A DNA stretch of 64,000 nt from Blasia pusilla (GCA_050084515.1 CM114271.1:5580001-5644000), one strand, 5' to 3'. Shown: positions 8,959 to 60,180, counted from the first letter of the stretch. The notes: generated by a model not told the origin, from the letters alone. A program made the numbers and translations.

Positions 8959-9249
8959 CAGACAGGTTGATTCAATGATGAGTTTGAAGATTCTAATGTT
9001 ACAATGAAAGATTCATATGAAATTTGTGCCACAATAGCGCTCGGTTGGGATTTGTTTTGGGGTTGACTTGTGAGAAAGGGAAACGTGTTATTTGAGTCAT
9101 CTTCTAAGATATGGCAACAAAAATTAGTTGAAAATTATAAGATAGGACTTCAAAATATCTGAAAAAAGGTGTAATATACATCCTTTTAATAGGGGTTTTT
9201 CCGCACATATCCTTGGACCCCCTAAGAATAGTGAACTCCCCTAGCTAGG

Positions 9250-39689: not shown

Positions 39690-40155
39690 CGTCGTATGCC
39701 TACTCTCCTTGAACATCAATCTTAGTATTGGGGAAGCGTACGTTCAGTAGGACACACTCTCATCACCAACCTGCACCCAAACACACTCACGTTAGTCTGG
39801 CTTAGGATCAAGCGGCCTTCCAACCCACCGAGTCCTCAACTTGGCATCTCATCTAGCTCAACCTTCCCTCATTCCTAGGTTCCCTACACAGGCGAGCCTT
39901 CTGAGACTTGGGACAAACTTTCTGGTTATTTCGGGCATCTGAAACGGCCTTTGTGCGCCTAGCGGTCCCAACTGTCCAACAGACCTTGCATGAGCCCCGA
40001 ACCAAGACTCAAAAATATGAGTCGTAAGTTGGAATCCAATAGGGATCTCCGAAATCCCTCTATTGAACTTGGTTTGGGTTTTGAAGCCCAACACCAAACT
40101 CACGATCCGTTCTGTGCCCTTGGGTCACCACGCAGCGCCCAAAGTGGGGTTTCGG
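39690..40155 (-). mobile_element. Partial LTR (3' part) related to the nested chromovirus LTR; truncates the 32609 element
   Basis: gtcgtatgcctactctccttgaacatcaatc...gcgcccaaagtggggtttcg is a diverged reverse complement of the last ~470 bp of the LTR 52491-53511. Confidence 0.8.
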
Positions 40156-40719: not shown

Positions 40720-42463
40720 TTATGTCGACGTCTCACCATTTCTTCCTCCTCTTCCCCTACCTCTTGTCACGCGCGTCCCACCTCCACGAAGAATAGTCCA
40801 ACTCAACATCAACTTCACCATCATCAGTTTCTTGTGTTGGTTGTGTCGAAAACATCTCCCACTCTCTCTTGAAGAATCCAAAGAGTTCCTTCTGCATTCG
40901 ACAAGGGTAATAGTATGTTCGAGGATATCCGCCTTCAGTCCTTTCAGGAATATCTTGCCAAAAGAAAGTGGCAAGATCAATTCGAGTCTCTTCAAAACAA
41001 GCCCATCCATCAATGGATTTTGATGGTGGTTTAGCACAAGTTTTCGAGTTGTGTTGAGGGCGTCTCAAACTTCTTGTAAATTCAACCCTTGAGCAAAGAA
41101 GAAGTTTTCCGCCTCTCGATTTTGGAGATTAATGGTTGTTCCGTGGATAAGCTCTCCTCGATCGTACATGTCAATGAAGCGAACCAACCACGCTTCCATT
41201 GCTCGATTAATCCTCCGCTAGCAAGGGATTTCTGCTTGAACCACCCCTTCTGTGTTCATTTCGGGGTTATAGTTCGATCGAGGGCTACGATGTCCCAAAC
41301 TTAAAGTGAAATTTTCTTGCTCTTGGGTTAATTTGCGATAAGTGGGTGATGTATTCTCATGAAGAGCGCGGAAAGATATGCCGAAAAGGTGATAGAGTCT
41401 TCCTCACCAAGCTTGTCTAGAAGTTGGACACTTGTGAGATAGTAGCATGGCCTTTTGAAGACAATATGGATGCCAATAACAAGCTTTACATGTGTCTCTC
41501 ACGTAACATCCTTCTGCAATGATGGGGTTAAAGCATATCATGCATTTGGGCCAGTTGTTTGGCATGAGGGCCCCTCCTTCACATACTGCAATTGCCTTCA
41601 TTCAATCCGGAAGATCTTGCATTGGTGTGTTCAGATTAAGAGGCGTTGGTGCCAACATCATAGAGGCATAGTTCGCAACGTTTGGATCTACGACATTGTC
41701 CCATACTGCACGTAGAGCTGGAGGCCACAATTGCTCGATAGGTTGAAATAAGATCATATCAACCTTCTTCACGAGACGAACCTCAAGTAGGGTTGTCTCA
41801 GGGGTGAATCCTCCCACGTGGCCTCTTGCTCTCCATTGCAACAATTCATCCATTTCTTGATGTCATCTTGCCATGATGTTCTCGTATGCTCTCCTCCACT
41901 ACTCTGTGTGGTCAACCATTACAACTCTTTGCCTTCTATGGAGGTCATCTCTGGTAATAGATTCATTCAAAAGCCTCTCCATCTCTTTCTTCAATCTGAT
42001 GTGCTCCTCACATAGCTGTTGATACTTCCTCTTCAAAACGTTGAATTCTGCGGCCAAATCAAAATTGCGTTGGGAATTTGTTACTAAACTCTCCAACTAT
42101 GATAGACGAGACATTACCTCTTTATTATCTGGAGCACTCTCCCCATGAAAGGTTTGGGGAGGAGCATCGCTATGCATAGGGCCATCAGAATTCTCCCCGG
42201 GCTCATCAAAGCTCGTACTATGACCTACATAGAGGTTATTCAAACCATCTCATCTATTCTCCGCCCCTATCTGTGCTCGCCCTTCATCTCCACGCTCGTC
42301 TTGTATATATTCTTCAGCACGACGATTTCTTCTTTGACCATCCAAGGAAGATAGTATGGATCCAAGGCTCTTTGACAATCCACCTTTCTTATAAAAGCAT
42401 GATGAAGCTTCCACTCTTGCTTGTTTAAAGTATTGTCGTGGTCTTCTACTATCTTCTTCTCTT
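40720..42463 (-). pseudogene. 3' part of a decayed ORF with a coiled-coil segment and a RING-like zinc finger; 5' part at 56813-57236
   Basis: CMICFNPIIAEGCYVRDTCKACYWHPYCLQKAMLLSHKCPTS (~41413-41544) has RING-like Cys/His spacing. A coiled-coil-like segment FNVLKRKYQQLCEEHIRLKKEMERLL lies at 41899-42096. There are many stops. Confidence 0.5.
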
Positions 42464-42940
42464 TGTCACATCTCAGTAGCCGATAGGTCGAGATCTATCG
42501 TAGGTAGGGCGTAGGAGCCAGCGGACTATCTTGAGCATAACTTTGTCCCACGATGTCGGATGAGGTTGAGGATAGGTCCATTGTGTCAGGAACGTCGTTT
42601 TTGACAACTTTCATGTTGAGGTCTTTTATAGCCGGGTGACTTGTTGACCAGGTCACCCGCCCCTGGTAACCTGTGCGCGGGTTACCAAGGGAGGGCTATT
42701 TTTAGGGGAAGAGCCTTTTGGCTCTTCCCAACCCTATATAAGAGAGGAAGATGGCTTTTCTAAGCCATCTTTCTCATGTTGGGCCGTTGGAGCACCTCCC
42801 TTGTATGTGTGTGAGCTGGGACTAGGGTGCTAGCGTCCGGATTCCTTGATAGCACAGGGTGGACGAGGCTCGATATGCCGATGTAGATTGAGGAGTGGAG
42901 TTTTAGGCCGGGTGTGCCGTTTTTACTACTCTTTATTTTT
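42464..42940 (+). repeat. Terminal repeat A1 (LTR-like, ~477 bp) with TATA box
   Basis: About 95% identical by manual count to 56194-56672; tatataag at 42735. Confidence 0.92.
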
Positions 42941-43870
42941 ACATGAGAAAGATGCCAGGGGGCTGGCGGGAATTCATTTTTTGCAGGTAGGCAAGCAAGT
43001 TGCCTTGTTTGGGAGCCCCAGGAGACGCGTGTGTTGCGGGTGTTGTTCATTTTTATGTTCGGAAGGCCGTGGACGGAAGCACTGTCCATTTTTCTCAGAT
43101 TTTGCTGGTACGAATTGACGTGGGACAGCAGCCGAGTGTAGTGTGTGGTGGAGCGTCGGGTGTACGCGAGTGAGGGTGTCGAGAGAGAGAAGAAAAGAGA
43201 GCTGACGGGCGGCGACGGGAGCTGACGGGTGGCGACAGCGGACAGCGGACGGCGGACGGCGAGCCCCCCTTCCCCCTCTCTCCTCTCTCCTTCCGTAGGC
43301 AGGCGCGCAGGGAGGCCACGGGCCGGACGGGCCCCCCCCCCACCGTCAACATGCACTCATGTGGAGGAGTGCATGTTGACGGTGCAGCAAGTTGGAGGGC
43401 GTGATCAGGTTACCCATTCGATTCACTTATCGTGTGTGATTGAGAGTGATGGGTATCGGGTAGTAGCTGGTGCTAGATGGGATCAGTGATGGTGACGAGT
43501 GTAGATTCTTTTCATGTGTAGTATGTTGGTGGATATATGGCGGTTGTCGAGTAGTGGTCGCGTGTATGACCCTAGAGAGTGTTGCTAGGTTAGGTGAGTC
43601 AGTTGGGAGGCTCATGGTGAGCCCGAGTGTTGAGCGTGCGTGAGGGCGGGTATGTCATCATGAGATTGATGTTAGCAGAGGTGAGCTAGTGAGGCGTGTG
43701 GGAGAGTCTTGGTAAGTCTGAGTGCTTGAGCGGGTGAGACAGGGTTTGTCATCATGGCGTTCTTCCAGGGTTCGGAAGAACGGGGTAGTACGAGCAGTAG
43801 TAGTGGTGTGACACGGAGTGGAGTAAGATACCGAGGGGTTACCAGTGAGGAGCTCCCTTGACATCCATCC

Positions 43871-45003
43871 ATGGTTGGATCGTCATCACTAGACACTGGG
43901 TCTGGTGACGAGATCACAGATAGAGACAGTAGTACGTGGCAGGAGATGGACGAGATGGGCCATCGGGGCATGCGTCGTTTCTCGGGTGAAGTGGGCACCA
44001 TTGACTTAGATGATTTTATCCAGGAGTTCGACACATGGTGCGACTTCCAGGAGATACGGACCCCGACACGGTTCAACCCTTTCATGGCATGGAAGGGGTT
44101 GTTCCAGCACTTGGAGGGTCCCCCGATGGATGACTACATGGAGTTTCGATCACTATATTCAGTAGAGATCGATGCTTGGAGGATGTATTGGGCTCCAGGG
44201 TATGTGTCCACTAGTGGTCGCGAGGCATATGATGGGATTGTTAGAGGAGAGAGACCCATACCATCAGCCCTGAGACTAGATGGAGAGGAGGGCAGTGAGA
44301 CAGGCGATGTGGCAGAGACCTCTGGTGGTAGAGGGCTACCTAGCTTCAGCCCCACAGTGGAGTTCTTCTGACAGTTGGGGAAGAGCTACCAGGGCGTACG
44401 CACCAACAAGCTGAATAGTCTACAGGATTTTCAGCGACGATCGGGTGAGAGTCTGAGAGAGGCATTCACACGCATGAGGAGGCTGATCATTGCTACGTTT
44501 GGAGTGACTGAGGTGCAATCAGTCCAGTATTGGTACGGGGTTCTGGACCGAGAACTACGGAGGAGAGTCCGAGATGTGGTGCTGATTCACACAGCGAAGC
44601 CCACATTGAAGGTGGTCTTTGAGTTGTCTGAGCGTATTGAGCTCAACATGAGTGAGGAGCAGGTAGTGACCGCTGGATTTTCTCGAGAGTCGACGGGTCC
44701 ACGAGCGACGGTGATCCCACAGGTGCCACAACGAGCACCAGTTCCACGGGAGCGGGCCAGTGTGCTAGAGAGTAGGGCGCGTACCGTGAGCCTATGAGGC
44801 AACGACCTACACCTACATATGTTGCCCAACAGGGATCGATGTGGTCTTGTTGGACGTGTGGAGGGGCCCATAGGCAGAGAGACTGCCCACAGCATGGGAG
44901 AGGACCACCAACGCCTCTGATTGCTCAGGAGCCACTGAGGATGGCCCCACCACAGCACTAGTGTGACTATTGCCACAGATATGGTCACACTAGGGAAAGA
45001 TGT
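43871..45003 (+). pseudogene. Gag with two zinc knuckles (decayed)
   Basis: ORFs 43871-44371 and 44375-44797 are in the same frame, separated by a TGA. Knuckles CWTCGGAHRQRDC (44848-44886) and CDYCHRYGHTRERC (44962-45003). Confidence 0.85.
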
Positions 45004-45869
45004 TTTGACCTTCGCCGAGGGGCACGTCCAGAGCTAGGCCGAGGGCCTGGGGGCGGTCGTCCTGGAGGAGGTTGGGGAGTTCTTCTTGGACGTGGTGGTA
45101 GAGGACCACCACCAGCCAGAGGAGATGGAGCAGGAGCACCATAGCCGACACTTCTCTCACGCATCGATCAGTTGGAGCAGAGGATTGCTGTCATGACGAT
45201 GATGCAGCTTAGGGAAGGCACGGAGCTGCGAGCAACTAGTGTGACTCTAGCTTCTACCTCTTACCCTGACCCGGGTGAGGATCTCGCCATTATGGGATTT
45301 ATGTGTAGTGCAGCCCAGGTTGAGGCACCTGCAGTGGTGACTCGGGGTGCTTTAAGAGGCACCGAGCCATCGAGAGGTGGAGTTGAGATTGACCCACAAG
45401 AGGGGACCGATGGGCGGCAGGCCAGGGTTCCACAGTCGTTCACATTGTCGGAGGCACTACACACACCATTGATGGTGCCTTGACGACTAGCAATGCCTAC
45501 AATTCAGGCACCTACGTGGACGTCACGAGGAGCTGGAGTGAAAACTCCTATGCCGGCTCGAGTGGAGTCAATGTCGACCATAGTGTTGGAGGTGGGCACC
45601 AGAGTGAGTCAGACTCCACTATTTTCCGCCATAGAGTTGGCGACGTTGGGAGTTGGACCAGTTGAGGTGTTCCGGTTGGCCGCCACGTTGTGTGAGCATG
45701 GAGAGATGATTGCTTCTTGTTCAGAGGTAGTTGAGGAGGTGGTGGACTTGCCCTCAGAGCCGGTGCTTGGGATGTTCCCCACAGAGTCATGGCATGCGGC
45801 GGCGGTGAAGTTGGTAGATATGCCAGCTCGATCGGCCATAGAGCAAGCAGTGGTGACACCTGGAGTAGT

Positions 45870-46290
45870 GTTACTGGATAACCGAGCTGGAGTATTTTGC
45901 TTGGTTAGTCCAACGGGGACAGTAAACCACCCGCAACGCGTCCTACTTGATTCGGGAGCGCAACCCTTGATGTTAGGGAAGGCGGCGTGTTTAGCGTTGG
46001 GGTTACGGAAGGCGGACATTGAGCCTTGTCCCTTCCAGATACAGACCTTGATTGGGGGCGTATCACCCACTCAGTATATGACTCGAGAGGAGATTGTTGT
46101 CAGAGTCCAGCCAGAGCATGCAACGGATAGTGCTATGGTGCGCACACATGCGATTACGACACCAGCTGAGTCGTACGATGTGTTGGTGGGGAGTACAGTG
46201 TTATATCCCCTAGGATTCATCCTTGACTTCTAGGAGGAGACTATTGCTTATCGGCCAGGATGGCGGTCAGGTGACAGCCGGATGAGTGAG
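45870..46290 (+). pseudogene. Retropepsin (aspartic protease) domain
   Basis: RVLLDSGAQPLMLG (DSG at 45949-45957) and C-terminal YDVLVG...LGFILDF. Confidence 0.88.
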
Positions 46291-46659
46291 TTACCCGTGC
46301 AGTTTGCGGGACAAGGTGGTCGATCACGAGGCGAGTCTGTGACCACGTTGGCAGCTTTCACAGGTAGTGTTAGCTGGCCAAGAGAGTTTTTGGAGGGGAA
46401 CGGACATGCGGAGGATGTCCCAGTAGCGGATAGTCCCACGGAGAGACAGGCCATGGCCGGTGTCTCTTCCCATGTTGGCGAGGCCTCTTCACCATTGTGG
46501 GGTACGACTCGAGAGCTACAGAGGAGTGCCGACGACCTCGTGAGGCAGGCGTGGAGTCATGTTTTTATCCCAAAGCCGGGAGAGTCACGTGGCGATCGGG
46601 ATCTTAGAGTGGAGACGATGACCCCACTAGATACCATACCTGTTGTGTGGCAGTGCCCA

Positions 46660-47625
46660 GAGGAGGGTGTTAGGGTGTTAGATCTCTTTGGAGGGATAAG
46701 CACCGGATTGGATGTACTATTGCAGGCGGGCATACGGGTGCATCAGTACCTTTATGTGGAGAGAGATGAGACCGCGCGGCGAGTGTCATTACGTCACGTG
46801 GCGAGATTGGTCTAGAGGTATCCTGAGTTGTTTTCGGTATCTGCAATACGGGGATACCAGCATACGCTACCCGCCGACATCTCTTTGGTGGGGGCGCAGG
46901 ATCTGGATAGAGTTGGCACCATTCATTTGGTGATTTCTGGATGGCCATGTCAGGGTCATTCATCAGCTGGCTGAGGATTTGGATTGCAGGATCCGAGGTC
47001 ATGGATGTTTTGGGAGATGTTGCGAGTATTACGACACTTGCAGGAGAGTTAGATATGTTCTCCAGCGTATATTTTGGAGAACGTGCCATTTTTGGGAGAC
47101 ACACGTGCCCGTGTGACGAGTGTACATCAGGTGAGGTCTTGGTTGGGACCTGCTGTGTTGTTAGATGCAGCGAGAGTTGGGTCACGTGCCCATCGTCCAA
47201 GACTATGGTGGACAAACCTGATACCATCAAAGGTACTGAGTCGAGTATACAGTGGAGTCCAGAGAGCACCACATCTCACAGTGGATGCTATTTTGGGCTC
47301 AAGGCGTCGATTTCAGGTGGTGACACGGTAGACCACCGTTGGCCATGGCCAATAGGGTGGGGGAGTTGAGGGCAGCCTTACCTACGTTGGTGAGCTTCCC
47401 AGCATCCCTTTCGTCAAGGAGGTGCCTTTCGTCAAGGAGGGCCAGGCATGATATGGGATAAGGTGATCGGAGCATTGGAGGAGCCTACAGTAGATGAGCG
47501 CGAGCGCGCCATGGGGTTCACTACCGGTACTACGGCGGAGCCAGGGATGACTGAGGCATCACGGAGACAGGTGTTGGGGCAGGCGATGGACCTCAACTGT
47601 CTCACATGGGTAGTCAGCCTAGGTA
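46660..47625 (+). pseudogene. DNMT3-like C5 cytosine DNA methyltransferase domain embedded in Pol
   Basis: In the protease frame: motif I VLDLFGGISTG (46675), II YLYVERD, III ADIS, IV ISGWPCQG (PC at 46945-46950), VI YILENV (ENV at 47077-47085) and VIII DAARVGSRAHRPRLWWTNL (to 47220). After a frameshift come IX-X, ERERAMGF...SRRQVLGQAMDLNCLTWVV. In-frame stops occur at 46813, 46972 and 47050. Confidence 0.9.
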
Positions 47626-48544
47626 TAGCTGAGCAGAGGTGGATGCGAGTGTCATCCATACTGTCACGTCCACGAGTTGCACCATTGCCTACAGGGTCTG
47701 TACAGGCATTGGCTTGGGGCGAGACGAGGAGAGATAGGCACCCATGGACTTCCTCGGATGTCGTTCGAGCAGAGAGTGCAAAGGCGGCTAGAGTAGCACA
47801 TGTTCATTTTTTGGATGTGGAGCATGGTGTAGGAGGTCAGAGTGGAGTGGCTGTTGCGGAGATGGCTAGGGTTGCTACATAGCAACCAAAGCCGGAGGTT
47901 ACGTCCTCTCCGAGTGAGGTCACGATGGAGACTTGGGAGCGTGTGATAGGTCTCAAGTTGATAGGAGGAGAGCGACGGCGAGTTCATAGGTTTCTGAGAG
48001 GGCATGTTAGTTGTTTTGCCTTCAGTATGAGAGACTTGGGTACGCTGAAGGGTCCCGGGATACGGATTGAGTTGGCTAGTGATACGCCGATCTTTCGTCG
48101 ACCCTACAGGTATTCTGATATGGAGCGAGCCTTGATTTGAGCAAGAGTCGAGGACTAGTTGGAGGCAGGACTTGTGGAGTTATCACATGGGGAGTATGCA
48201 TCCGCCAGTATGTCATGCCGGCGAAGAAGGATATGTATGGCAATTGGACGGATAGGCGGATGTGTGGAGATTACCGTCCTATCAATCGACAGACGAGGTC
48301 AGACCGGTACGCCATGCGTACTCCTGAGGAGATCTTTGATGCGGTAGGGCATGCAAAGATCTTCAGTACTTTAGATCTCCGTGCTGGCTATCATCAGCTT
48401 CCTATCAGGTTGGAGGATAGGGAGAAGACAACATTCTGGGGGATAGATTGGTTCGGGAGAGATTGCTTGTATTAGTGGCGGTTCTTACCATTTGGGTTGA
48501 AGAATGCGCCTGTAGAGTTTCAGAGAGTGATGGATAGGATTCTG

Positions 48545-51500
48545 TGTCGCGACCCTCATAACCAAACAACACCAAATACGCGCCAAGCGAAACATCAGAA
48601 CTCAAAGGAACTCACGCCGCGAGGTTTGCGCTTTGGAGAGGCGTTTGGTAGAGTCTCTTGGAAAAGTCTAAGAGACGAAACGCGGAACAGAGTTGTGCGT
48701 TTCATGCGTTAGTGGTCGCGACCAGGAAACCTAGACCAAACGCGAGCCGAGACTTGAGATGAGTTGAGTCTTGGAGGTTGGTTGCCAAAGAGGTGAGAAC
48801 CAGTTTGGAACATGACTAGCGTTTGGGAGAATCTGACTGTGTTTAGGACCATAACGTTGAGCTCCAAGATGCGTTCGGGACAAGTAAGGGCGCGTTGGAA
48901 AGCTGATCTTGAGACGCTTCCAACGCACCAAAGATCTCAGCAAACGCATAAGTACAGGCTGAGATATTGGCCGAAAACAATTCAGAGAGCAATCGGGTTG
49001 AGGGCCAATTGGAGGGGCCCGGGTGTCTTTCCCTAAATGTAGGGGGCCCCGGAGATCCCCAGAAGTACTAGTAAGGGGAGTACCTTCTTTGAGATGTCTC
49101 GGGAAATGAAACCCCACTTTGGCGCCAAACGGCGTTTGAGGCACGGATGAAACGGGAGTTTGGCGCGGAAACCCAAACCCAAACCTGATCCAAGGGAGTG
49201 GACTTTTACGCCACACTTGGATTCCAACCGAGATTCACCGTGCGAGTCTTGGTGAGGAACTCATTGGATGTTCATCGGACGATTGGAACCGCTAGGCGTG
49301 AGACGCCGTTTCAGGTTCCTGAACCGACCAGAAAGTCTGTCCCAAGTCTTTCGAGACTTGCCCGTGTTGGAAACCGCGAAACTAGGAAGGTTGAGCTTGA
49401 AGAGAGAGTCCGAGACGAGAACTCGGAAAGTAATCCCGCTGATTGATCCAAGACCCGACTAACCGGTGCGTGTTTGGATGCAGATCAGCGTTGAGAGCGT
49501 GACCTCATCGAACGCACGCTTCCGCAACAAACAAGATTAACGTTCAAGGAGAGTAGGCGCACGACACGTGGTATCAGAGCTAGAGGCTCCATTTCCTTGA
49601 TGAGCGTGAACTTGGGGTCGTTGAAGATCTAGACGTTTGGGGAGAACTCAAGGTTGCCGGAAGACCGCGACGCCGAGGAGGAACGCAAGAGGCGAGGAGG
49701 AGATCTGAGAAAAGGCGACGACTCGCAAATGGCGACCAAGGACGAAGAACCGAGGAAACCGCGAGTCAAAGCAAAGAAGCCAAGAGATTTAATCAATGAC
49801 GGACCGAGAGCCGGAGGTGGAATTTTGCGACTCGAAGTGCGAGTCCCGGACATGAGGATGTTCCAACCGAAAATCTTTCCGCGGGACCTTCGGGTCCAAA
49901 CTTAAACAATCCGGCCTTTTATACCCAAATGATGGGATTGATGAAGGTGATGGCGGACCAGATGGCTGAACAGAGTAAGGTGATCTCGGAATTCAAGTCA
50001 AAGGAGACTCAGAGCATACGAAAGCAAGAAGTCGACCGACACCGAAAGGAGATGGCCTACTCATGAGAAAGAGTTGTTTGCGGTGGTTCATTGCTTGAGG
50101 AAGTGGCGTCACTATTTGGGACTTCACAGACTCGAGTATTCACCGATAACATATCGCTCAAGTATTTTGAGACCAGGATCGCGTGGACGCCAAAACAACC
50201 GGTGGCATGATACCTTGGCGTTGATGAATGTGGAGCTAATCCACAAGCCGGGAAGGACAATGTCATTCCAGATCGTTAAGTCGCAGGATGAACACATGCC
50301 ATCGGCGACACAAGTGTTGAGAGCAATGTTCCCTAATGAAACAGACACTGGAAAGAAGGATTCGTGAAGGATACATGAAGGATGAGCAAGCGAGGAGTAC
50401 CTTGGGAAGTTAAAGCGGGGAGAAGGTGGCCAATCTGAGTTTGAGACACGGCTTGCTAAGGTTTAAGCAGAGCAGGATCTATGTAGGCCAAGGCAAGCTA
50501 CGAACCAAGGTGTTTGTTGTGGAATGTCATGATGGACCTTTGGCGGGACACAAAGGGGAGAAATCCACTCTTGCTGTTTTGTCTAAGAGGTTCTTCTGGC
50601 CCAACATGAAGGAAGATGTTGCTCAATATGTGAAAACATGCGTGACTGCCAAAGTAACGCGTGTCTTATGCGAAGAAACAAGGTTTACTTCATCCTTTGC
50701 CAATCCCGGAGGGACCCTTGCAAAGCATTAGCATGGATTTCATTACGAGTCTTCCAGAATCTGAGGGATACAACGCTATACTTGTGATAGTTGATCGGTT
50801 TAGCAAGTTGGGGAGGTTTGTGCCGACGAGAGAGTCTGCGACGGCCTACGCGACTTCCCGACTATTCCTGGATGGTTGGTGGCGTGCGCACGGATTGCCT
50901 AGGAGCATTGTGTCCGATCGGGATCCGAAGTTTACCAGTGCCTTTTGGAAACATCTATTCAGGAGGTTCCGGACCAAACTCAGCTTTAGTACGGCCTTCC
51001 ATCCTCAAACGGATGGGCAAACGGAAAAAGTAAACTCGGTCGTAAACCAATACTTACGGAATTACGTGAGTGCGGACCAAAGAGATTGGGCCAAGTGGTT
51101 AAGTATGGCTGAGTATTGTTACAACTCGACTAAGCATTCTGCAACCGGAGAATCTCCGTTTCTTCTGGCGTATCAAAGAGAACCAGAAGGGCCTCTTGAC
51201 TTAGCTCTTTCGAAGGGCAATACATCGACACACACTCGTCAAGCAACGGCGGAATGTTTGTTAGTGGAAATGCAGGAACGACAAGAGCGAGCGAGAGAAA
51301 GTCTCGCCAAGGCTCAACTAAGGTACGTAAAGCATGCTAACAAAAGTCGGCGCCATGTGAGTTTCCAAGTTGGGGAACAAGTGTGGTTGAGTGTTAAGAA
51401 TCTCACTCTTCCGAAAGAATTGTTCATGAAATTGTCACCAAGTATCTTCGGACCGTATGTGATCAAGGCAAAGCCGTTTGAGGATGTGTACACGTTGAGC

Positions 51501-53511
51501 CGCTAATCGAGTTCAAGATTCACTCGACTTTCCATGTGTCATTATTGAAGAAGTATCTTCAAGACAATGCGCCCGGAGCAAAGGAGGATGTTGAGACCAC
51601 AACCGGTCATCGAAATGAGGAACCGAGTTCGAGGTTGAGACTATTCTGCGCCCAGACGTAGGGGCCACCAAGCACGAGTACTTGGTCAAGTGGAAAGGCT
51701 ATCATGTGAAAGAGGCGACTTGGATTGCGGAGGCGGATCTAGAACATGCGCAAGAAGCATTGCGTGACTTCAGATGGATGCAAGAAAGGCACGTGCGTTA
51801 GTACATGGTGAAGCAATGGACATAACTTGTGACCGGAAAGCTTGGGCCGATAACCCGTTGTAACTAGAAAGGTTTAGTTGTTGCAATAAAGAAGACATGG
51901 ATTTGGAGATTCGATGCTTGTATTGTAATTTTGAGTTTGGTTTGTGCAAGGCAATGAGTAGTTCTTCATATGCTTAGGATGTAAGTCAAGGAGACCAAAC
52001 AATGAGTATTTGAGGTGAGAGCTTGTATTCAGATAAGGCATCTAGATCAGGACCAAGTGTTGAAGTACTAGCATTTGGGCTCGCCCTAACGTCGGCGGGG
52101 CAGATGAGTCTGTCTTGGGGTTTGTGGTGATCTCATTCATGTTTCATGACTGAACTTAGTGACGCGCCTAGGTGGAATACAGGTGACCCAAAAGTAGTAC
52201 GAGTTGGCTAGGTAGACAGGCGGTTGTTTACAAATAGTGAGTGAAGTGTTAGGTTGCAGACTTAGTGAGCTTATTTTGATAGTTAGATTAGTTTGGCAGA
52301 ACTAGTCTAGGCTCATCGTAGCGAAGCTAATAAGTCTAAGTGCCGCAAGCGACAAACCTAAGACTTAAGCCAAAAAGAGGAATGCGGGTTAGCTACGTAA
52401 CGCGATTACGTGTTAAGGGTCGGCTTCCCAGAACTTAACATCAATAAGGTTTGCGTTGATGAGGACATCAACCTTCTAAGGAGGGGTGAGTGTCGCGACC
52501 CTCATAACCAAACAACACCAAATACGCGCCAAGCGAAACATCAGAACTCAAAGGAACTCACGCGCGAGGTTTGCGCTTTGAGAGGCGTTTGGTAGAGTCT
52601 CTTGAAAAGTCTAAGAGACGAAACGCGAACATAGTTGTGCGTTTCATGCGTTAGTGGTCGCGACCAGAAACCTAGACCAAACGCGAGCCGAGACTTGAGA
52701 TGAGTTGAGTCTTGGAGGTTGGTTGCCAAAGAGGTGAGAACCGATTTGGAACATGACTAGCGTTTGGGAGAATCTGACTGTGTTTAGGACCATAACGTTG
52801 AGCTCCAAGATGCGTTCGGGACAAGTAAGGGCGCGTTGGAAAGCTGATCTTGAGACGCTTCCAACGCACCAAAGATCTCAGCAAACGCATAAGTACAGGC
52901 TGAGATATTGGCCGAAAACAATTCAGAGAGCAATCGGGTTGAGGGCCAATTGAGGGGCCAGGTGTCTTTTCCTAAATGTAGGGGGCCCCGGAGATCCCCA
53001 GAAGTACTAGTAAGGGGAGTACCTTCTCTGAGATGTCTCGGGAAACGAAACCCCACTTTGGGCGCCAAACGGCGTTTTGAGGCACGGATGAAACGGGAGT
53101 TTGGCGCGAAACCCAAACCCAAACCTGATCCAAGGGAGTGGACTTTGTACGCCACACTTGGATTCCAACCCGAGATTCACTTCGTGCGAGTCTTGGTGAG
53201 GAACTCATTGGATGTTCATCGGACAGTTGGAACCGCTAGGCGTGAGACGTCGTTTCAGGTTCCTGAACCGACCAGAAAGTCTGTCCCAAGTCTTTCGAGA
53301 CTTGCCCGTGTTGGAAACCGCGAAACTAGGAAGGTTGAGCTTGAAGAGAGAGTCCGAGACGAGAACTCGGAAAGTAATCCCGCTGATTGATCCAAGACCC
53401 GACTAACCGAAGTGCGTGTTTGGATGCAGATCAGCGTTGAGAGCGTGACCTACTGAACGCACGCTTCCGCAACAAACAAGATTAACGTTCAAGGAGAGTA
53501 GGCGCACGACA
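48545..53511 (+). mobile_element. Nested chromovirus (Ty3/Gypsy), internally deleted (no PR or RT), recent insertion
   Basis: LTRs 48545-49566 and 52491-53511 (TGTCGCG...CACGACA); TSD TTCTG at 48540-48544 and 53512-53516; PBS TGGTATCAGAGC at 49569-49580 (tRNA-iMet); PPT aaggaggggtgag at 52478-52490. Confidence 0.95.
50055..51775 (+). pseudogene. RNase H C-terminus, integrase and chromodomain of the nested chromovirus (frameshifted)
   Basis: HEKELFAVVHCLRKWRHYL; CHDGPLAGHKG; ISMDFITSLP, SIVSDRDPKFTS, HPQTDGQTEKVN; GPY; chromodomain EFEVETIL...EYLVKWKGYHVKEATWIAEADLEHA (~51625-51770). Confidence 0.9.
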
Positions 53512-53980
53512 TTCTGGCTGGCTTGGATTTTTGTACGATGTTACATAGATCATATTCTTATCTTCAGTTCCACGGTTGAGGAGCATGAGAGACACTTGGA
53601 GGAGGTGTTTCGGGGATTGCAGTTACATGGACAGAAGTTACATCTAGGCAAGTGCAGATTCTTTCAGGAGCAGATTGAGTACTTGGGACACACCATATAC
53701 CCGAGTGGGTTAGGCGTTCAGCAGACGAAGGTAGAGGCTATTGCGTAGATTCCACGCCCCATGATGTGAGTCGAGTCCGAGCATTTCTTGGAGTGGCGAA
53801 CTTCTATCGACGGTATGTCAAAGGTTTTAGTGCGATCGCAAAGTCTTTGACCTTGTTGACGAGACTTGATCAGGTTTGGTTGTGGGGGGATGATCAGGAG
53901 CGAGCATTTCAGGAGCTCAAGGATAGGTTGACGTCCTCACCCATTTTACAGAGACCGGTTAGGGGTCGCCCATTCTAGTT

Positions 53981-55800
53981 ACATACGGATTGGAGCATGT
54001 TGGGTCTAGGAGCAGTGCTTACTCAGAGGGATGACGAGGAGAGGGAGTTCGTTGTGGCTTACGCCAGCCGATTGAACAACATTGCCGAGGCAAAGTACAA
54101 CTCCTACGAGGGAGAGTGCTTGGCTGTAGTGTGGATTGTGGCACATTTCAGGTGCTATTTATTTGGTAACCCTTTCACACTTATCACTGATCATCAGCCG
54201 TTGAGGTGGTTGATGGAGTCCGAAAAGCTTATGGGCAAGCTTGCCAGGTGGGCTCTATTACTACAGGAGTATGAGTTTGAGGTGGTTCATAGGCCAGGTT
54301 GGTGAAGCAGGATGGGGATGGGTTGAGTCATAACCCATGTCCGAGTCAGAGAGACGATACAAGAGCTCGATGGCACGGAGAGAGTGATGAGGAGATGGTG
54401 CATGGTTGGCATGCATCTGCCTATCTTTGTTGGTTGACTATGGCAGGTCAGCCACACGTAATGACTCCAATGGTGGGGTTGAATGATGAGTCCTTAGATC
54501 CGGAGGTTAGTGAGGAGGCGACAGATGATCGTGATATCCATGATGACGTGGAGGTTGTGGAGTTCTTGCGCACTGGCGTCATTGCGAGTACAGTGAGTGC
54601 TAGGGAGCGGGATCGGATCCTACAGAGAGCCAAGAGGTTCAGGTGGGAGGGGACTCATATTTTGCGGGTATGGGGAGATGGTAGGATACGAGTGGTATCT
54701 CATCCTTCCCAGCGAGCACGTGTAGTGCAACATGCTCATGAGAAGTTGGGACATTTCGGAGTAAAGCGTACTTACAGCTTACTCCAGGTTCAGTATTGGT
54801 GGCGCGGCATGCATACTGGGGTACAGGAGTTTCTGGCCAGATGTATGGTATGTGACACAGTGCGAGCATCCTTCAATGCTCCCACTCCGCAGTTACATCC
54901 TTTGCCGATTATGGGTTTAGGGTATCGGTGGAGTTTAGACTTTGCAGGACCTTTGCCATTGACGAGACGTCATCACAGGTATGTGTTGGTCATGGTGGAG
55001 CATTTTTCCATGTGGATAGAGTTGGTGGCACTACCAGACAAGGCGAGCGAGGGAACAGCTTATGCGTTTCTAGATCGTGTGCTTAGTCACTTTGGTGCAC
55101 CGGCGGAGGTGTTGACTGAGCAGGGTACCGAGTTCAGGGGAGAGTTTCAGGCCTTGTGTGATGAGGCGATGATAGATCACCACACCACCTCCAGAGATCA
55201 TCCTGAGGCGGATGGGTTGGCGGAGAGAGTGGTAGATACGGTGAAGAGAGGATTGCACAAGTATGGCTTGCAGCGGGGACAGTTGAGGGAGTGGGACCTA
55301 CAGTTGCCATGGTTGGCTATGGGTTATCGCTTTAGTCGGCAGGCATCCTTGGCATCATTTTCACCGTAATTTTTGCTCTTTGGGAGAGAGCCAGATTTAC
55401 CTGCAGCGATTCGACGTGACATGGTGGAGGTGTTAGATGTTGATGATCGAGATGTGTGGGTACAAGCATGTTCTCAGAGGGCACAAGTTTTTCGTCGAGT
55501 TATGCCTATGGCCTTTGAGAACTTAGCTATTGCCCAGCATAGAGATACATTGAGGTACGCGACCATTCGTGGAGGAGGTTATCGTCCAGGGATTAGGAGG
55601 TTTCATCCTGGAGATTACGTGTATTTACAGTAAGCGGCATCCATGACGCTAGATGTCACTGCAGGGCGCACGATCCTACGTGTGCGCGAGGTATTACGGA
55701 CCGGAGTCCTCATGTTGGAGGGACGGGATGGTATGGTTTGGAAGGATCATGTGTGCAATTATGCGCCATGTTATCTTCCGAACGTAGATGGGACGGTGGA
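53981..55800 (+). pseudogene. RNase H and DDE integrase of the DNMT element
   Basis: HTDWSMLGLGAVL, VAYASR, YEGECLAVVW, ITDHQPL; HHCC (HEKLGHFG...CMVC); catalytic core WSLDFAGP / VLTEQGTEF (D>E) / DGLAERVV. Confidence 0.92.
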
Positions 55801-55834
55801 TCCGAGCTTGGCAGTGGTACCTGCAGGCTTGAGG

Positions 55835-55978
55835 TGTATGTTGTGCGGATCTGCGAGGGGTGCAGCCACCATGTTGGTATGTGATGGTTGTTCTCGAGGG
55901 TGGCATATGTCATGTATGACCCCCCCCCCTCTTGATGTGGTTCCCACAGGACGATGGATGTGTCTGAGATGTGTATAG
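55835..55978 (+). other. PHD finger at the integrase C-terminus
   Basis: CMLC-GSARGAATMLV-CDGC-SRGW-H-MS-C-MTPPPLDVVPTGRWM-CLRC is a C4HC3 pattern with the typical P-x-G-x-W motif. Confidence 0.9.
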
Positions 55979-56045
55979 GATAGTAGGTCATGTCAAAGAG
56001 ATGTGATATTTTCTATCTGGAGTTGGGGGGATCCAACTGCCAACT

Positions 56046-56056
56046 AGGGGGGCGGT
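56046..56056 (+). promoter_or_regulatory. Polypurine-tract-like sequence immediately before repeat B1
   Basis: A purine-rich, G-run tract (46046-type PPT pattern A-G-run-CGGT) directly followed by TG at 56057. Confidence 0.6.
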
Positions 56057-56812
56057 TGTGTGATCTCCATGTATATGTATGAGTTGATTTTTTGTACATG
56101 TGTGGATTGACCCGTGTGTGGGGAAGATCGGTGGTGTGGTGAAGATTTGACCAGCGATGTATATTGTGTAGCGATATGTATGCGCACGACAGCTGTCACA
56201 TCTGAATAGCCGATAGGTCGAGATCTATCGTAGATAGGGCGTAGGAGCCTGCGGACTATCTTGAGTGTAACTTTGTCCCACGGTGTCAGATGAGGTTGAG
56301 GATAGATCCATTGTGTCAGGAACGTCGTTTCTGACAACTTTCATTTTGAGGTCTTTTACAGCCGGGTGACTTGTTGACTAGGTCACCCATCCCTGGTAAC
56401 CTGTGCACGCAGGTTACCAAGGGGAGGGCTATTTTTAGGGGAAGAGCTTTTTGGCTCTTCCCAACCCTATATAAGAGAGGAAGATGGCTTTCCTAAGCCA
56501 TCTTTCTCATGTTGGGCCGTTGGAGCACCTGCCTTGTATGTGTGTGAGCTAGGACTAGGGTGCTAGCGTCCGGATTCCTTGATAGCACAGGGTGGACGAG
56601 GCTCGATGTGCCGATGTAGATTGAGGAGTGGAGTTTTAGGCCGGGTGTGCCGATTTTACGACTCTTTATTTTTGTTGTGTGATATCCATGTATATGTATC
56701 AGTTGATTTTTTGTACATCTGTGGATCGACCCATGTGTGGGGAAGATCGATGTTGTGTGGTGTAGATATGACCAGCGATGTATGTTGTGTAGCGATATGT
56801 ATGCGCACGACA
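56057..56812 (+). repeat. 3' terminus: B1 (56057-56191), gc, A2 (56194-56672), B2 (~56676-56812)
   Basis: B1 and B2 are ~135-bp direct repeats (tgtgtgat(c/a)tccatgtatatgtat...gcgatatgtatgcgcacgaca) that flank A2. B is absent after A1. Confidence 0.9.
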
Positions 56813-57236
56813 TCTTGGTCTCTTATCTCTTCTCAAAGAGACCCCTCATCCACATTGCCATACTGGACCTCCATATCCTTCATCAACTCCACGACTTTGA
56901 GCTAAACAAATATCTTGCTCACTAACTTCATCTTCCTCTTGGGGAGATCCTCGTACTTCCGACGCTATTGAATAAAACCTGATCCTTTGTCCAATCATTC
57001 TCTTCCACTTTCCTTGCAAATTCTCCAATTGCACGCTCCGGCCACTTAAGCCGCGACTTTTTGAACTCTCCTTTCAAAACTTTTGGGTCAATGGTGCTAT
57101 CCAAGCGCGCCTTCAATTTATCTACCCTGACGAATTGCGAGACCGTCTTCTTGTTCACCTTCGGAGGGATCTCTGGTGTTGGTATATCGAGGGGTTCTTC
57201 CGTCATCATGATTGTCGTGAGGGCTACGATCTTCAT
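56813..57236 (-). pseudogene. 5' part of the RING/coiled-coil pseudogene split by the 42464-56812 insertion
   Basis: ORF 56928-57236 plus decayed frames run to the junction. Removing one TCTT copy joins them to 42463 without an immediate stop (e.g. EEIRDQ|EKKIVEDHD). Confidence 0.45.
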
Positions 57237-57624: not shown

Positions 57625-60180
57625 CTCTAGTACAAAAACCGCCTCTAGATGACTTAGAAAAATGACTAGATGTTACTCAAACCGGGCCTTTGTGTGACTA
57701 AGTAATTACTTAACTAGACGCTAGTAATAAAAATTGCTCCTAGTCGTATAAGTTGTTACTAAAACCGAGGGTAGTCGTATGTGAGTCTCTTTTTTGTTAT
57801 TCAACATAGTCACTAAAGATGACTTGATCTAGTATTTTTTTATGACTAGGTTAAGTCATAAAAAATGACTAGACGAGTCATAAAGAATGACTGGACGAGT
57901 AATAAAGAATGACTAGACGAGTCATTAATAATGACTTGGTGAGTCCTTAAGAGTGACTTCTCAGAGTAATAAATATTGACTTCATGTGTCATAAAAGAAT
58001 AACTAAGAGTCATTAAAATGACTTGTCCATGTCATTTACAATCTTATTCACTAACAATATCCAAATAACAACTATACCAGTCATTAGGTATGATATATTG
58101 TTTTATTACTGACAGAAATATGTACATGAAATTGGCATTTTAGTCCATTGTATCCATGAATATGAATTACTCCTTCCTACATATCCTCCCTACACCTATC
58201 GCTACTTCTCTTATATCCATGCAACGAAGATGCCAGTATGTATCTGTTGTACAGTCCTAATTCTACCAGCATCGTGTGAAAACATACAAGCATATTACTC
58301 ATGTACCAACCCATCCATGTTGTAGCATCTGATCACATTAGTTTTTCACAGTAAAAAATCCTTATCTATTGAAAGATACAGATAGCAAATGTTTCTTACA
58401 TCCAATTGTGGCCATAAGTCCAAAGCTACAAAATGTATCCATACATCTTGAAATGGAATATTTTCTTACGTCAAAAGAATGCCTAGTGAATTATAGTGAA
58501 AGATGGTCATCAATGGAAGAACACAAAATCTACTTCTCAATGCAAACTCCCCCTCTGATATTGAGGAGTTGATCACCACAACTTTAGGTAGCCAATACTT
58601 TTATCGACTCAATAATAGCACTCCATAAATGTATGGACAGCCTCAATGGTTGGGGCTAGGACCCATTCAAGGAGTGGAAATGACAAAGGCTACATGTAAC
58701 AGCAAGTCACATATATATAAAGAAGTATTTGGCACCGCATGAGAGGGTCCCTCGGTGTAGTTGGAGAATCCACCCTGCATAGAGTCTACACATGACATAT
58801 ATGTCAGTGTAGTACAAACACATCACACAACCTTCCCACCATCATCCTATGATGTATAATGAAAGAGAAATTTGAGATTGCAAATCAATAGATTCGTACT
58901 ATTCCACTCTTGCCCCGTTGGACAATATCCACCGTATAACAAACTTGGCTTGGAGTTCTGTGCATAGGATCCATCCCTACCGCCTTGAGACATGCTTGCA
59001 TGTCTCTCTCCACTATATTGTACACCCACTTGCTGTTTGAGAGGAATACGACTTTCAAGTAGACGCCCGGGTGCAACATCCCTTGCCCAAGTAGCTTGCC
59101 CCCTAACTATCCCTTTCTGCCAATGCAATGCAACCCACCAATTAGAGGAAATTTCTTTCAAATTCCACTAACCTTGAAACAAAATTATAGACACACATCC
59201 TGTCTAATTGAAACGGAGAAATTATCTGCTCCTTCTTTCCCCCAATAGTTGATAGACAAGGCTTCTTAGGAGCCGGAAGCTCATCTGAGCCTTATTGATG
59301 CTCTTCACCAAAGTCTGCAACAAACTCTGGATCACAAGTGGGAGATTTTTCACCTCCAGTATGAGCATCAATGTGATCAGTAGATTTTTTCATCACTTTG
59401 ATGTACCACAAGGAAGTGGTTTCCATAGGCTTGCATTCTCTTGTAAGCTAAGACGGACATTCAAGGTAGAGCTGACACAAGGTAGACATCCCGGTCCAAA
59501 TTTGGGTGGAAAGCCCCCCGCAAGATCATGGTAAAGATCTTGACCTTCACTTCAAAAGGAAGGCTCCTTAATGTGGACAAAAAGTACCCTCAGTCATTTT
59601 GAACCATTGGTTGAAACGAAACACCCGCCATCACTCTGATGCCATCCAAAGACATGAAGGATGTTACATTCCTAAGACTTCTCTCTCCATAGTGCACAAC
59701 GCTACAACTGCCCGGTATTTAATGACAACAAAACTTCTCTCTCCATTCAAGTGAATACCCCAAATATTTACTAAAGTATAAAAGAGTAGTTAGAACTAAG
59801 TATCAAAGAAGTTACCATACAGATCGTCCACCTTTCCCTCAGGTATCCACCTATGGATCTTTTCATGGATTGGTATAGGGGATCTCTGATATTGAGGAGG
59901 GATTGCTTTTGTATGGGAGATTTTTATTATTGCACTATATGACGCAAATGTCCATTAAGATATCCAATAAGTTCCTACGAAAAAATCCCATGAATTTCAA
60001 TCAGATTTCATACCTTTTTAACCGTGTCCAGGGAAAATGTAGATTCCATATTTTTATACCTGCTTTCTATATGCTCTGAGTCTTTCAAAGCTCTACGAGC
60101 CACCAACAATTATAACACTTGAAACTCTACACCAACACTTTAGAGAGAGAGAGTATCCATTAACTTGCGACCATAGACCC
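57625..60180 (-). mobile_element. CACTA-like DNA transposon relic
   Basis: The terminus ctctagtacaaaaaccg resembles CACTAGTACAAAA. Subterminal ~22-bp repeats (aatgactagacgagtcataaag) span ~57862-58020. Decayed minus-strand transposase-like remnants include RMQAYGNHFLV at ~59410-59440. Confidence 0.45.

Follow-up and report, generated by a model that had tools for sequence, protein, structure and literature searches.

Split direct repeats in a streptophyte Ty3/gypsy lineage with a DDE integrase, with predicted self-priming and a possible origin by circular permutation of the LTR

Introduction

How does a retroelement with Ty3/gypsy enzymes come to carry its repeats in the order A1-internal-B1-A2-B2, and does this arrangement belong to one copy or to a lineage? 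The question is raised by an element in a 64,000-nt stretch of Blasia pusilla DNA (GCA_050084515.1 CM114271.1:5580001-5644000; this whole stretch is called the window). The layout is that of the DIRS order (PAT, Ngaro, kangaroo and TOC-type elements), whose members rely on a tyrosine recombinase and, according to the available text of PMC8969392, leave no duplication of the target. Prior art for such A...BAB repeats on a Gypsy element is one figure legend, that of Fig. 4c in de Mendoza et al. (2018; PMC5890265), which gives DIRS-like repeats for KnitGypsy-Dnmt3 of Klebsormidium nitens; Gypsy domains and DIRS-like A...BAB repeats are what that element, as described there, has in common with the window element. 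The available text of the same paper gives no analysis of a primer binding site (PBS), polypurine tract (PPT), junction, duplication or mechanism and does not mention bryophytes, although its supplements may hold more. The original prediction for the Blasia locus proposed either a family that combines Gypsy enzymes with a DIRS-like, possibly tRNA-independent replication scheme, or a rearrangement of this single copy.

Repeats and Ends of the Window Copy

The repeats, ends and joints of the window element are as follows (identified by BLAST and repeat search for A1, B1 and A2, by BLAST and sequence for B2, and by sequence for the right duplication).

42460-42463, + strand: left target-site duplication TCTT, the same 4 nt as after B2
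42464-42940, + strand: repeat A1, 477 bp, starting TGTCACA (left integrase end)
56044-56054, + strand: polypurine-type tract TAGGGGGGCG, adjoining B1, kept as ..CTAGGGGGGCG(AG) in relatives
56055-56191, + strand: repeat B1, ending in CGCACGACA
56187-56198, no strand: junction J, CGACA-GC-TGTCA, a palindrome in which the right integrase end abuts the left
56194-56673, + strand: repeat A2
56674-56812, + strand: repeat B2, ending in CACGACA (right integrase end)
56813-56816, + strand: right target-site duplication TCTT

A1 and A2 are 94.6% identical over 480 columns and B1 and B2 92.1% identical over 139 columns, as measured by repeat search and BLAST, neither of which found A or B anywhere else in the 64-kb window. 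The element is not bounded by two equal long terminal repeats (LTRs): the 5′ end consists of A only, with no B adjoining, and the 3′ end of B-J-A-B preceded by the PPT, as the original prediction had described them. The outer ends TGTCACA...CACGACA were likewise confirmed in the sequence, where TGTCACATC, the first letters of A1, lies immediately 3′ of ...CTCTT, and B2 terminates in GCGCACGACA followed by TCTTGG. TCTT is thus present at both element ends, a 4-nt agreement that is weak by itself in this CT-rich flank. At the 3′ end, the G-rich tract GGGGGGCG (56047-56054) adjoins B1, and the core of the B1/A2 joint, GACAGCTGTC, is a perfect 10-nt palindrome. The end of A coincides to the base with the start of the predicted primer site, and the start of B with the end of the PPT, so that in the window the A2|B2 joint places the last base before the PBS beside the first base after the PPT.

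Coding Region

Between the repeats lie the following features.

42955-48118, + strand: degenerate leader and gag/protease region with many stops
48119-48543, + strand: N-terminal part of reverse transcriptase, split by a nested insertion (RVT_1, E 6.7e-4, under cut-off)
48544-53511, + strand: canonical Ty3/gypsy element from a different family, truncated and nested in reverse transcriptase
53512-54302, + strand: C-terminal part of reverse transcriptase and RNase H (RVT_1, E 5.2e-12; RT_RNaseH, E 1.4e-33)
54293-55366, + strand: integrase, H2C2 zinc finger and DDE core (Integrase_H2C2, E 2.5e-15; rve, E 2.2e-12)
55835-55972, + strand: PHD finger, C-terminal in the integrase region (PF00628, E 3.8e-10)

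Pfam matches on the + strand of the element run in the order RVT_1, RT_RNaseH, Integrase_H2C2, rve and PHD. No tyrosine recombinase (Phage_integrase) was found in 29 ORFs on both strands or in the two long ORFs of the intact relative L044, in agreement with the Gypsy enzymes and DDE integrase that had been predicted. The nearest solved structure is Ty3 Gag-Pol (7q5b, E 4.4e-98). Upstream, 42955-48118 gave no reliable Pfam match on either strand, Rubredoxin and DUF5852 remaining under the cut-offs. Reverse transcriptase resumes at 53512, and RNA and DNA reads from other copies connect 48544 with 53529. The nested element has 1023-bp LTRs that are 97% alike, the PBS TGGTATCAGAGC, a PPT and the duplication TTCTG; it is foreign to the split-repeat element and did not figure in the original prediction.

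In L044, whose integrase is ~61% identical to that of the window, ORF matches comprise Asp_protease_2, RVT_1, RT_RNaseH, Integrase_H2C2 and rve, with a PHD finger in ORF2, and residues 940-1086 of ORF1 match a C5 methylase (PF00145, E 1.8e-13). The methylase, the RT-RH-IN-PHD order and a 3′ end of PPT-B-J-A liken L044 to KnitGypsy-Dnmt3, with which it is not equated here. The window element shows no PF00145 match, an apparent difference from KnitGypsy-Dnmt3, but its ORFs are degenerate in the upstream part of gag-pol. The PR-RT-RH-IN order, the DDE integrase with its H2C2 finger, the PPT, the TG...CA tips and a 4-bp target duplication (class criterion 4-5 bp) are all as in Ty3/gypsy (Metaviridae). 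The lineage differs from Ty3/gypsy in lacking two equal LTRs and a tRNA PBS, and in having a PHD finger in place of a chromodomain, for which no match was found at the C-terminus in the window or L044. The window element is an old, inactivated Ty3/gypsy copy, with ~5% repeat divergence, many stops and one nested insertion as signs of age, and the lineage to which it belongs is one of streptophytes (liverworts, mosses and a Klebsormidium-like alga).

Recurrence of the Layout in Related Loci

Among 80 related metagenome loci, 49 extend at least 1500 nt beyond the integrase. PPT-B1-J-A2-B2 is present in 20 of these 49 rows, corresponding to 15 distinct loci once duplicates are merged, and is distributed over at least four lineages (the main moss-type family, L056, L068/L070 and L074/L075, plus the window). 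The complete A1...B1-A2-B2 is held in four loci (L009, L022, L055 and L072). Three of these four long full-length copies have clear target duplications, AAGG in L009, TCTC in L022 and AATC in L055; the fourth, without a clear one, has an eroded 5′ end. Conversely, B was found on neither side of the 5′ A in any of 15 distinct 5′ ends (17 rows). The split repeats A...B-A-B are therefore the normal architecture in the lineage rather than a peculiarity of the window copy, and the general layout of a copy is A-internal-PPT-B-J-A-B with tips TGTCA...CGACA and 4-bp target duplications. From these tips and duplications it follows that the copies were inserted by a DDE integrase.

A rearrangement of one copy, in which an element with A+B LTRs lost its 5′ B and PBS and duplicated its 3′ B, or an assembly artefact to the same effect, would be a natural reading of the window copy viewed alone, with its TCTT match in CT-rich DNA. 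It is made very improbable by the 15 distinct loci in at least four lineages, with their duplications, by the lack of A followed by B at all 15 5′ ends, and by junction breakpoints that match PBS and PPT to the base. B1 and B2, moreover, are 92% alike rather than identical, and an 8% divergence excludes a recent duplication in assembly. What had been offered as a family trait, A...BAB with a 4-bp duplication, thus recurs, while the alternative of a copy-specific loss is refuted.

Not all copies have the full 3′ end. A short form, PPT-B|flank without A2-B2, accounts for 20 rows, 18 of them distinct, a number that falls to 15 when near-duplicate flanks are counted once. Of seven full-length copies of this form, five have perfect 4-bp duplications, one matches at 3 of 4 positions and one has no match. 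Such copies may be direct products, deletions between B1 and B2, or assembly collapses; metagenome contigs may be chimeric, as L003 appears to be against L002.

Conservation of J extends over seven sequences representing at least four lineages, and the last ~40 nt of B are likewise conserved between lineages. The J spacer is always 2 nt, and every variant of it can be derived from GC through C>T changes. The A2|B2 joint again unites the base before the PBS with the base after the PPT in the moss family, where, as in the window, both boundaries can be seen; in L056 and L068, which hold no 5′ end and allow a check of the PPT side alone, the start of B2 is the start of B1 after the PPT. The joint itself varies among copies: AG, GAG or CGAG may be carried over from the PPT side, L016/L022 have a 17-nt templated filler, and in the window's own species eight A-to-B joint variants occur among the matches listed.

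Predicted Self-Priming

No exact or near match to a tRNA-iMet PBS, and no TGG... PBS, follows A1, in keeping with the original prediction; the sole exact tRNA-iMet match in the search belongs to the nested element, and ARAGORN found no tRNA genes in the 64-kb window. The following features point to a different primer.

42735-42741, + strand: TATA box TATATAA within A1 (from sequence)
42748-42775, + strand: hairpin of PBS-like arm, TTCT loop and primer arm (read from sequence)
42766-42779, + strand: predicted self-primer CATCTTTCTCATGT at the predicted transcript start, 31 nt 3′ of the TATA box
42941-42954, + strand: predicted self-primer binding site ACATGAGAAAGATG, immediately after A1 (complementarity, fold)

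The 14 nt at 42766-42779 are the perfect reverse complement of 42941-42954, and the minimum-energy fold pairs the two. Comparable complementarity extends over 17 nt in L009 and 16 nt in L044, and the moss family consensus has the primer ..TAGTTCTTTGAGT and the PBS ACTCAAAGAAC... Pairing is thus retained across three lineages (14, 17 and 16 nt) despite differing sequences, which amounts to covariation. Folds in which the transcript 5′ end pairs with the PBS have z-scores of -3.1, -2.9 and -5.2, with fold start points chosen from the primer/PBS complementarity and the transcript start inferred from the TATA box together with that complementarity. The hairpin at 42748-42775 lies between the TATA box and the predicted start, a layout also seen, with different sequences, in the moss family, L044 and L068. 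In L022, where the hairpin is deleted, and in L072, a search for exact matches of 9 nt or more gave no complementary stretch where one would be expected.

We infer from these sequence patterns that minus-strand synthesis may be self-primed as in Tf1, by the first 14-17 nt of the predicted transcript, whose start would lie about 30 nt past a TATA box in A, on the PBS, and self-priming of this kind would explain the missing tRNA primer site. The tRNA-independent priming that had been suggested is consistent with this covariation. Self-priming Ty3/gypsy elements are described in Tf1/sushi and the plant Tcn1 clade, the latter from mosses and club-mosses (Neumann et al., 2019; PMC6317226, available text). 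By that description, rather than by phylogeny, they resemble the present lineage in having a PBS after the 5′ repeat that is complementary to the transcript start (here predicted) and no tRNA PBS; they differ in having ordinary LTRs and chromodomains.

Origin of the Split Repeats

Because A ends at the PBS and B begins after the PPT, an LTR of B+A is expected. We lean towards a permuted-LTR model in which such an LTR would be made by reverse transcription, integration would take place at the internal J and the cDNA tips would be joined. Ordinary strand transfers would yield the linear cDNA [B-J-A]-internal-[B-J-A]. Integrase would then bypass the cDNA tips and act on the palindrome J of the left LTR. 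The integrated ends lie one B length, 105-140 bp, away from those set by PBS and PPT, a further difference from Ty3/gypsy. The tips themselves, the end of A and the start of B, would be joined either before integration, in a 2-LTR circle, or at integration by end joining. With the tips joined to each other, A2|B2 would mark where the circle closed, and what is integrated would be a circularly permuted cDNA. Circular intermediates are accordingly possible in the replication of the element. The replicating masters would be A...BAB copies, as only these can give an RNA with U3 (B plus the 5′ portion of A) and a 3′ R.

Several points count against the permuted-LTR model. A symmetric 2-LTR circle, if cut at either J, should also yield A-B-A...B; as no such copy turned up among 15 distinct 5′ ends, the model needs an extra directional step. 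Nor does it predict the share of PPT-B|flank copies. DNA tips, furthermore, are the normal site of action for retroviral-type integrases. Cleavage of a palindromic LTR-LTR junction by retroviral integrases nevertheless has a precedent, as reported in the available parts of PMC1180852 and PMC1905944.

The element is covered by sense-strand RNA reads. Those spanning A into B number 2 and 2, and those running from the end of B through the 2-nt spacer into the start of A in a related subfamily 63 and 98, from which it follows that B1 is read through. With both joints present in RNA, a DIRS/PAT-type scheme with a DDE enzyme has to be weighed: RNA would extend from within A1 to within B2, internal B1-J-A2 would serve, like an internal complementary region, as the template that closes the cDNA into a circle, and integrase would open the closure junction, the A2|B2 joint being inherited via RNA rather than remade. 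Both complete ends would be found only at J in such an RNA, and split-direct-repeat DIRS elements have their repeats in this same order (PMC8969392, available text; PMC5890265, legends of Fig. 1e and 4c). We consider this scheme unlikely. It leaves unexplained why, in several lineages, the end of A should fall exactly at a self-primer PBS and the start of B exactly behind a PPT, boundaries that fit ordinary LTR-type strand transfers with an LTR of B+A. The lineage also has a DDE integrase, TG...CA tips and target duplications, the last of which DIRS elements lack in the account of PMC8969392, and on both grounds the DIRS-like replication first proposed is disfavored. Two identical J sites would pose the same symmetry problem, and the indels and fillers that vary at A|B suit a newly made joint somewhat better.

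Directionality would be accounted for if non-canonical reverse transcription gave a linear A-internal-B-J-A-B whose tips are already the integrase ends, without a circle or internal cleavage, either through an end-to-end template switch of the plus strand (end of A to start of B) or through priming at J. The right end alone would then be extended, as at the 15 5′ ends without A-B-A, integrase would keep acting on DNA tips, and template switching, too, typically leaves small variable letters such as those at A|B. Nothing primer-like lies beside J, however, as the end of B is not purine-rich and the start of A has no PBS; the left tip would still need trimming from the start of B to J, and the route is conjectural throughout. 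It appears rather improbable.

Returning to circular permutation, we suggest only tentatively that the whole streptophyte DDE-integrase lineage may replicate with a circularly permuted LTR and a built-in palindromic circle junction as its integration site. If so, it would be the first retroelement with an abutted-end junction as obligatory integration substrate, like the circles of IS elements, and its cDNA tips would have to be joined in every cycle. The position of the insertion site with respect to PBS and PPT, rather than reliance on a tyrosine recombinase, would then account for the split-direct-repeat architecture of DIRS-type elements. Retroviral LTR-LTR junctions arise in dead-end or side products only. 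Like the 2-LTR circles of PFV and HIV-1, as covered in the available literature, the lineage has a palindrome of two abutted integrase ends on which integrase could act; unlike them, it carries the corresponding junction in every copy, within the LTR defined by reverse transcription.

Structure of the window copy

The host element, an old Ty3/gypsy copy at window positions 42464-56812, carries two pairs of split direct repeats, A1/A2 and B1/B2, in the layout A1-internal-PPT-B1-J-A2-B2, where J is the junction between B1 and A2. This A...B-A-B arrangement was confirmed at the positions of the original prediction, and no further copies of A or B were found elsewhere in the 64-kb window.

Repeats of the host element and the element nested within it (window positions)
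42464-42940: repeat A1, 94.6% identical to A2
48544-53511: nested element, canonical Ty3/gypsy, internally truncated, with two 1023-bp LTRs (97% alike), a PPT and a TTCTG duplication
56055-56191: repeat B1, 92.1% identical to B2
56194-56673: repeat A2, 94.6% identical to A1
56674-56812: repeat B2, 92.1% identical to B1

A1 starts with TGTCACATC and B2 ends with GCGCACGACA. TCTT flanks the element on both sides, a match that is weak by itself because the flank is CT-rich. The G-run GGGGGGCG adjoins B1, and the B1/A2 joint reads CGACA-GC-TGTCA, with the core GACAGCTGTC forming a perfect palindrome. Divergence between B1 and B2 (8%) is similar to that between A1 and A2, which fits an A pair and a B pair that were each identical at the time of insertion. 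Duplication of B during assembly was ruled out, as B1 and B2 are 92% alike and such divergence excludes a recent artifact.

Pfam matches on the + strand of the host element comprise RT, RNase H, Integrase_H2C2, rve and a C-terminal PHD finger, while the gag-protease region is degenerate. The RT is in two pieces, interrupted by the nested element, and its N-terminal piece gives a weak match (E 6.7e-4, below the cut-off). Neither a tyrosine recombinase nor, with confidence, any other family was matched by Pfam in the remaining ORFs of both strands. The nested element has a tRNA-iMet PBS (TGGTATCAGAGC) two bases 3′ of its 5′ LTR, and it is an internal contrast: an ordinary gypsy element looks ordinary in the same genome. 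Its LTR shares its last 10 nt (GCGCACGACA) with repeat B and starts with TGTCG, like A. The integrase of the nested element was too distant to be matched by tblastn at 1e-5 from the host integrase.

Recurrence of the split repeats in relatives

The host integrase had 168 relatives at E ≤ 1e-3 among 2663 candidates, including sequences from the liverworts Riccia, Calypogeia and Marchantia as well as from Sphagnum, Closterium and Chlamydomonas eustigma; many of these relatives carry rve plus PHD, and the Protein Atlas match was to a generic IN-PHD cluster only. DNA of relatives was taken from metagenome contigs, where 322 of 348 pattern matches were confirmed. The best 80 of the 322 confirmed loci were kept (50-80% amino-acid identity; numbered with the prefix L), forming 62 clusters at ≥97% identity over ≥1 kb, and 49 of the 80 have at least 1500 nt beyond the integrase. 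Nine rows, unclassified or with another 3′ structure, stand outside the 3′-end counts (L010, L025, L042, L044, L051, L054, L066, L067, L076).

The long form of the 3′ end, PPT-B1-J-A2-B2, occurs in 20 rows representing 15 distinct loci among the 49, in the main moss-type family (hereafter the moss family) and in the separate lineages L056, L068/L070 and L074/L075. The entire A1...B1-J-A2-B2 structure lies within L009, L022, L055 and L072; the first three are bounded by 4-bp duplications (AAGG, TCTC and AATC, respectively), so that the predicted architecture recurs together with its target duplication, and the 5′ end of L072 is eroded. The 17 rows with a 5′ end (15 distinct) never show B before or after A. 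A1 of L068 was not found in the 10 kb upstream. J is constant as ...CGACA-NN-TGTCA..., with GC, AC, GT or AT as NN, and all of these spacer variants derive from GC through C>T decay. Conservation of J, and of B over its final ~40 nt, extends from the liverwort window to the other lineages.

The alternative first offered for the window copy was a rearrangement specific to it, in which the 5′ LTR lost B along with the PBS and B was duplicated at the 3′ end. With 15 distinct long-form 3′ ends, B beside A at 0 of 15 distinct 5′ ends and no canonical A+B or B+A LTR copies in this metagenome sample, that explanation is refuted.

A second form, in which PPT-B is followed by unrelated flank without A2-B2, was present in 20 further rows (18 distinct loci, or 15 when near-duplicate flanks are merged). 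Of its seven full-length copies, five have perfect 4-bp duplications (TACA, ATTA, TGTG, TACA and TGTT), one has a duplication matched at 3/4 positions and one is unmatched. Several second-form loci are reproduced in contigs from different samples. These loci may be direct integration products, B1-B2 deletions or assembly collapses. L003, of the second form, shares 99.5% identity with the long-form L002 along 2597 nt as far as B, then departs from it across the final 20 nt of B and the flank; it looks chimeric. The 3′ flanks of L002 (3168-4600) and L018 (4279-5637) match in reverse at 88% identity, which indicates two elements tail to tail ~1.4 kb apart, in paralogous or orthologous regions. 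L051/L052 carry a copy of repeat A at an internal position (8979-9315), ~690 nt upstream of the integrase, and may represent a rearranged or chimeric contig.

Predicted self-priming

In the window, the 14 nt directly 3′ of A1 (ACATGAGAAAGATG) are the exact reverse complement of positions 42766-42779, which lie 31 nt downstream of a TATA box inside A1. The moss-family counterpart of this site (ACTCAAAGAAC...) is complementary to ...GTTCTTTGAGT in the corresponding position; L009 matches over 17 nt and L055 over 10 nt, and a 17-row alignment shows the family consensus. The site is gone from degraded copies, among them L022. The apparently intact L044 has a 16-nt pairing. The sequences differ across the three lineages and the geometry is the same, which amounts to covariation. 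The primer/PBS pair is a predicted Tf1-type self-primer. Such a self-primer was earlier predicted for the Tcn1 clade of mosses and club-mosses (PMC6317226). A tRNA PBS for the host element was rejected; none had been recognizable in the original prediction because the putative self-primer site occupies its place. The suggestion of tRNA independence is largely right, with complementarity of 14, 17 and 16 nt in three lineages. When folded, the RNA segment that begins at the predicted start and reaches to the PBS is closed by the primer/PBS stem (z-scores -3.1, -2.9 and -5.2); these folds are non-independent evidence, because their start points were chosen from the complementarity. A search by eye for complements of the self-primer within B, as for minus-strand priming on B or J, gave only weak matches of 5-6 nt.

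In every lineage a hairpin is also kept between the TATA box and the predicted start. One of its arms is a second PBS-like sequence, the other is the primer, and 3-4 nt form the loop. The hairpin lies just upstream of, and extends over, the predicted transcript start, and its sequence covaries from lineage to lineage.

Positions of the hairpin
Window: 42748-42775
L009: ~1832-1858
L044: ~8822-8850
L068: ~12130-12165

Repeat boundaries and a proposed replication scheme

The last base of A directly precedes the PBS, and the first base of B directly follows the PPT. In both the window and the moss family, the A2|B2 joint puts precisely these two bases side by side: the window joint ...TTATTTTT|GTTGTGTG compares with GGGGGGCG|GTTGTGTG on the PPT side and ...TTATTTTT|ACATGAG on the PBS side, and the moss-family joint is ...CATTTTC|AGTTGTGG. 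The contigs of L056 and L068 contain no 5′ end and bear on the PPT side only; there, B2 starts as B1 does after the PPT. Since the PBS follows A and the PPT precedes B, the usual pair of strand transfers would produce a linear cDNA, [B-J-A]-internal-[B-J-A], of which the integrated copy would be a circular permutation, its tips joined (A|B) and the molecule opened at J of the left LTR. Retroviral integrases are described as able to cut such palindromic junctions (PMC1180852, PMC1905944).

The A|B joint is variable, with AG, GAG or CGAG carried over from the PPT side, and in L016/L022 it holds a 17-nt filler copied from 30 nt upstream. At least eight A-to-B joint variants occur in the window's species among the 15 of 105 joints listed (canonical joints may lie among the rest), where the T-run and GT-run at A|B are also slippage-prone. 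This variation resembles that of circle junctions. If a symmetric 2-LTR circle were cut at either J by chance, A-B-A...B would be expected as often as A...B-A-B. The long form accounts for 15 of ~33 distinct classified 3′ ends and A-B-A for 0 of 15 5′ ends, the latter having a probability of about 1e-4 under equal shares; symmetric cutting is therefore disfavored and the process would be directional. One idea is that integrase commits to the left-LTR J, which is first to become double-stranded, and the freed B is end-joined to the right tip; another is an extra template switch limited to the right tip. DIRS-like templated closure of the cDNA is a less likely route and does not account for the coincidence with PBS and PPT. 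Of the original prediction, the architecture and the tRNA independence largely stand; for the replication scheme, a permuted LTR is a better reading than a DIRS-like one.

RNA from the window's species

Two raw RNA runs under the label of the window's species were compared with the host element, and copies in the same genome were judged indirectly, from contigs. The host-element family is very abundant (187,609 contig pieces from run X1), and its other copies lack the nested insertion. Coverage by sense-strand RNA extends across the entire element, at low depth. Reads spanning A into B number 2 and 2; 63 and 98 reads leave the end of B, cross two bases and enter the start of A in a related subfamily. 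Transcription therefore continues from B1 into A2, which replicating RNA requires. With 5-9 molecules at each beginning and ending place, neither a transcript start nor a poly(A) site was readable, and the 24 loose ends listed, of 3414, include none with poly(A).

Relation to known elements

DIRS-type elements are described as having the same repeat layout with a tyrosine recombinase and no target duplications (PMC8969392), whereas the host element has duplications and lacks a tyrosine recombinase match. KnitGypsy-Dnmt3 of Klebsormidium nitens combines DIRS-like repeats with Gypsy domains in a figure legend (PMC5890265), its sole mention in the literature searched. L044 (976-8226; also L043), an apparently intact relative with PPT-B-J-A, resembles it. 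ORF1 of L044 (1369 aa) encodes a protease and a C5 cytosine DNA methylase domain (PF00145, residues 940-1086), and a single stop separates it from ORF2 (1047 aa; RT-RH-IN-PHD); the contig wraps round within repeat A, and the closest solved structure is Ty3. The methylase, the RT-RH-IN-PHD order and PPT-B-J-A together tie the window's family to the KnitGypsy-Dnmt3 kind. The split-repeat Gypsy architecture is therefore already on record, and beyond that legend the searchable papers (without supplements or Repbase) yielded no other description of split repeats with an integrase. The same papers did not contain the bryophyte spread, the self-primer or the base-exact PBS/PPT relation, nor the palindromic junction, the duplications or the two integrated forms.

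Textbook models and LTR-finding programs alike expect an element to have two equal LTRs, with the LTR tips serving as integrase substrates. The present lineage departs from that rule systematically, so annotation of bryophyte and algal genomes will probably misread or overlook it. That the A and B boundaries coincide to the base with PBS and PPT turns a figure-legend curiosity of the searchable papers into a testable model, covering in vivo use of an internal palindromic junction by a retroviral-type integrase, how cDNA tips become joined and the possible evolution of split-repeat (DIRS-like) architectures from LTR elements. Intact relatives such as L044 and the transcribed copies in the window's species offer experimental material.

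Other repeats in the window

Two fragments, at 39691-40010 (-) and 30329-30559 (+), are 72-75% similar to the nested-element LTR and are probably old solo-LTR remnants of related families. A degenerate integrase-like stretch at 11536-12140 (+) is 35-40% identical to the host integrase. The blocks at 16-20, 22-28 and 30-38 kb are GC-rich and G-skewed, which suggests further transposon relics. About 1 kb downstream of the host element, at 57854-58008, lies a tandem array of a 22-bp AGTCATAAAAAATGACTAGACG-like unit, each unit of which is itself an inverted repeat.
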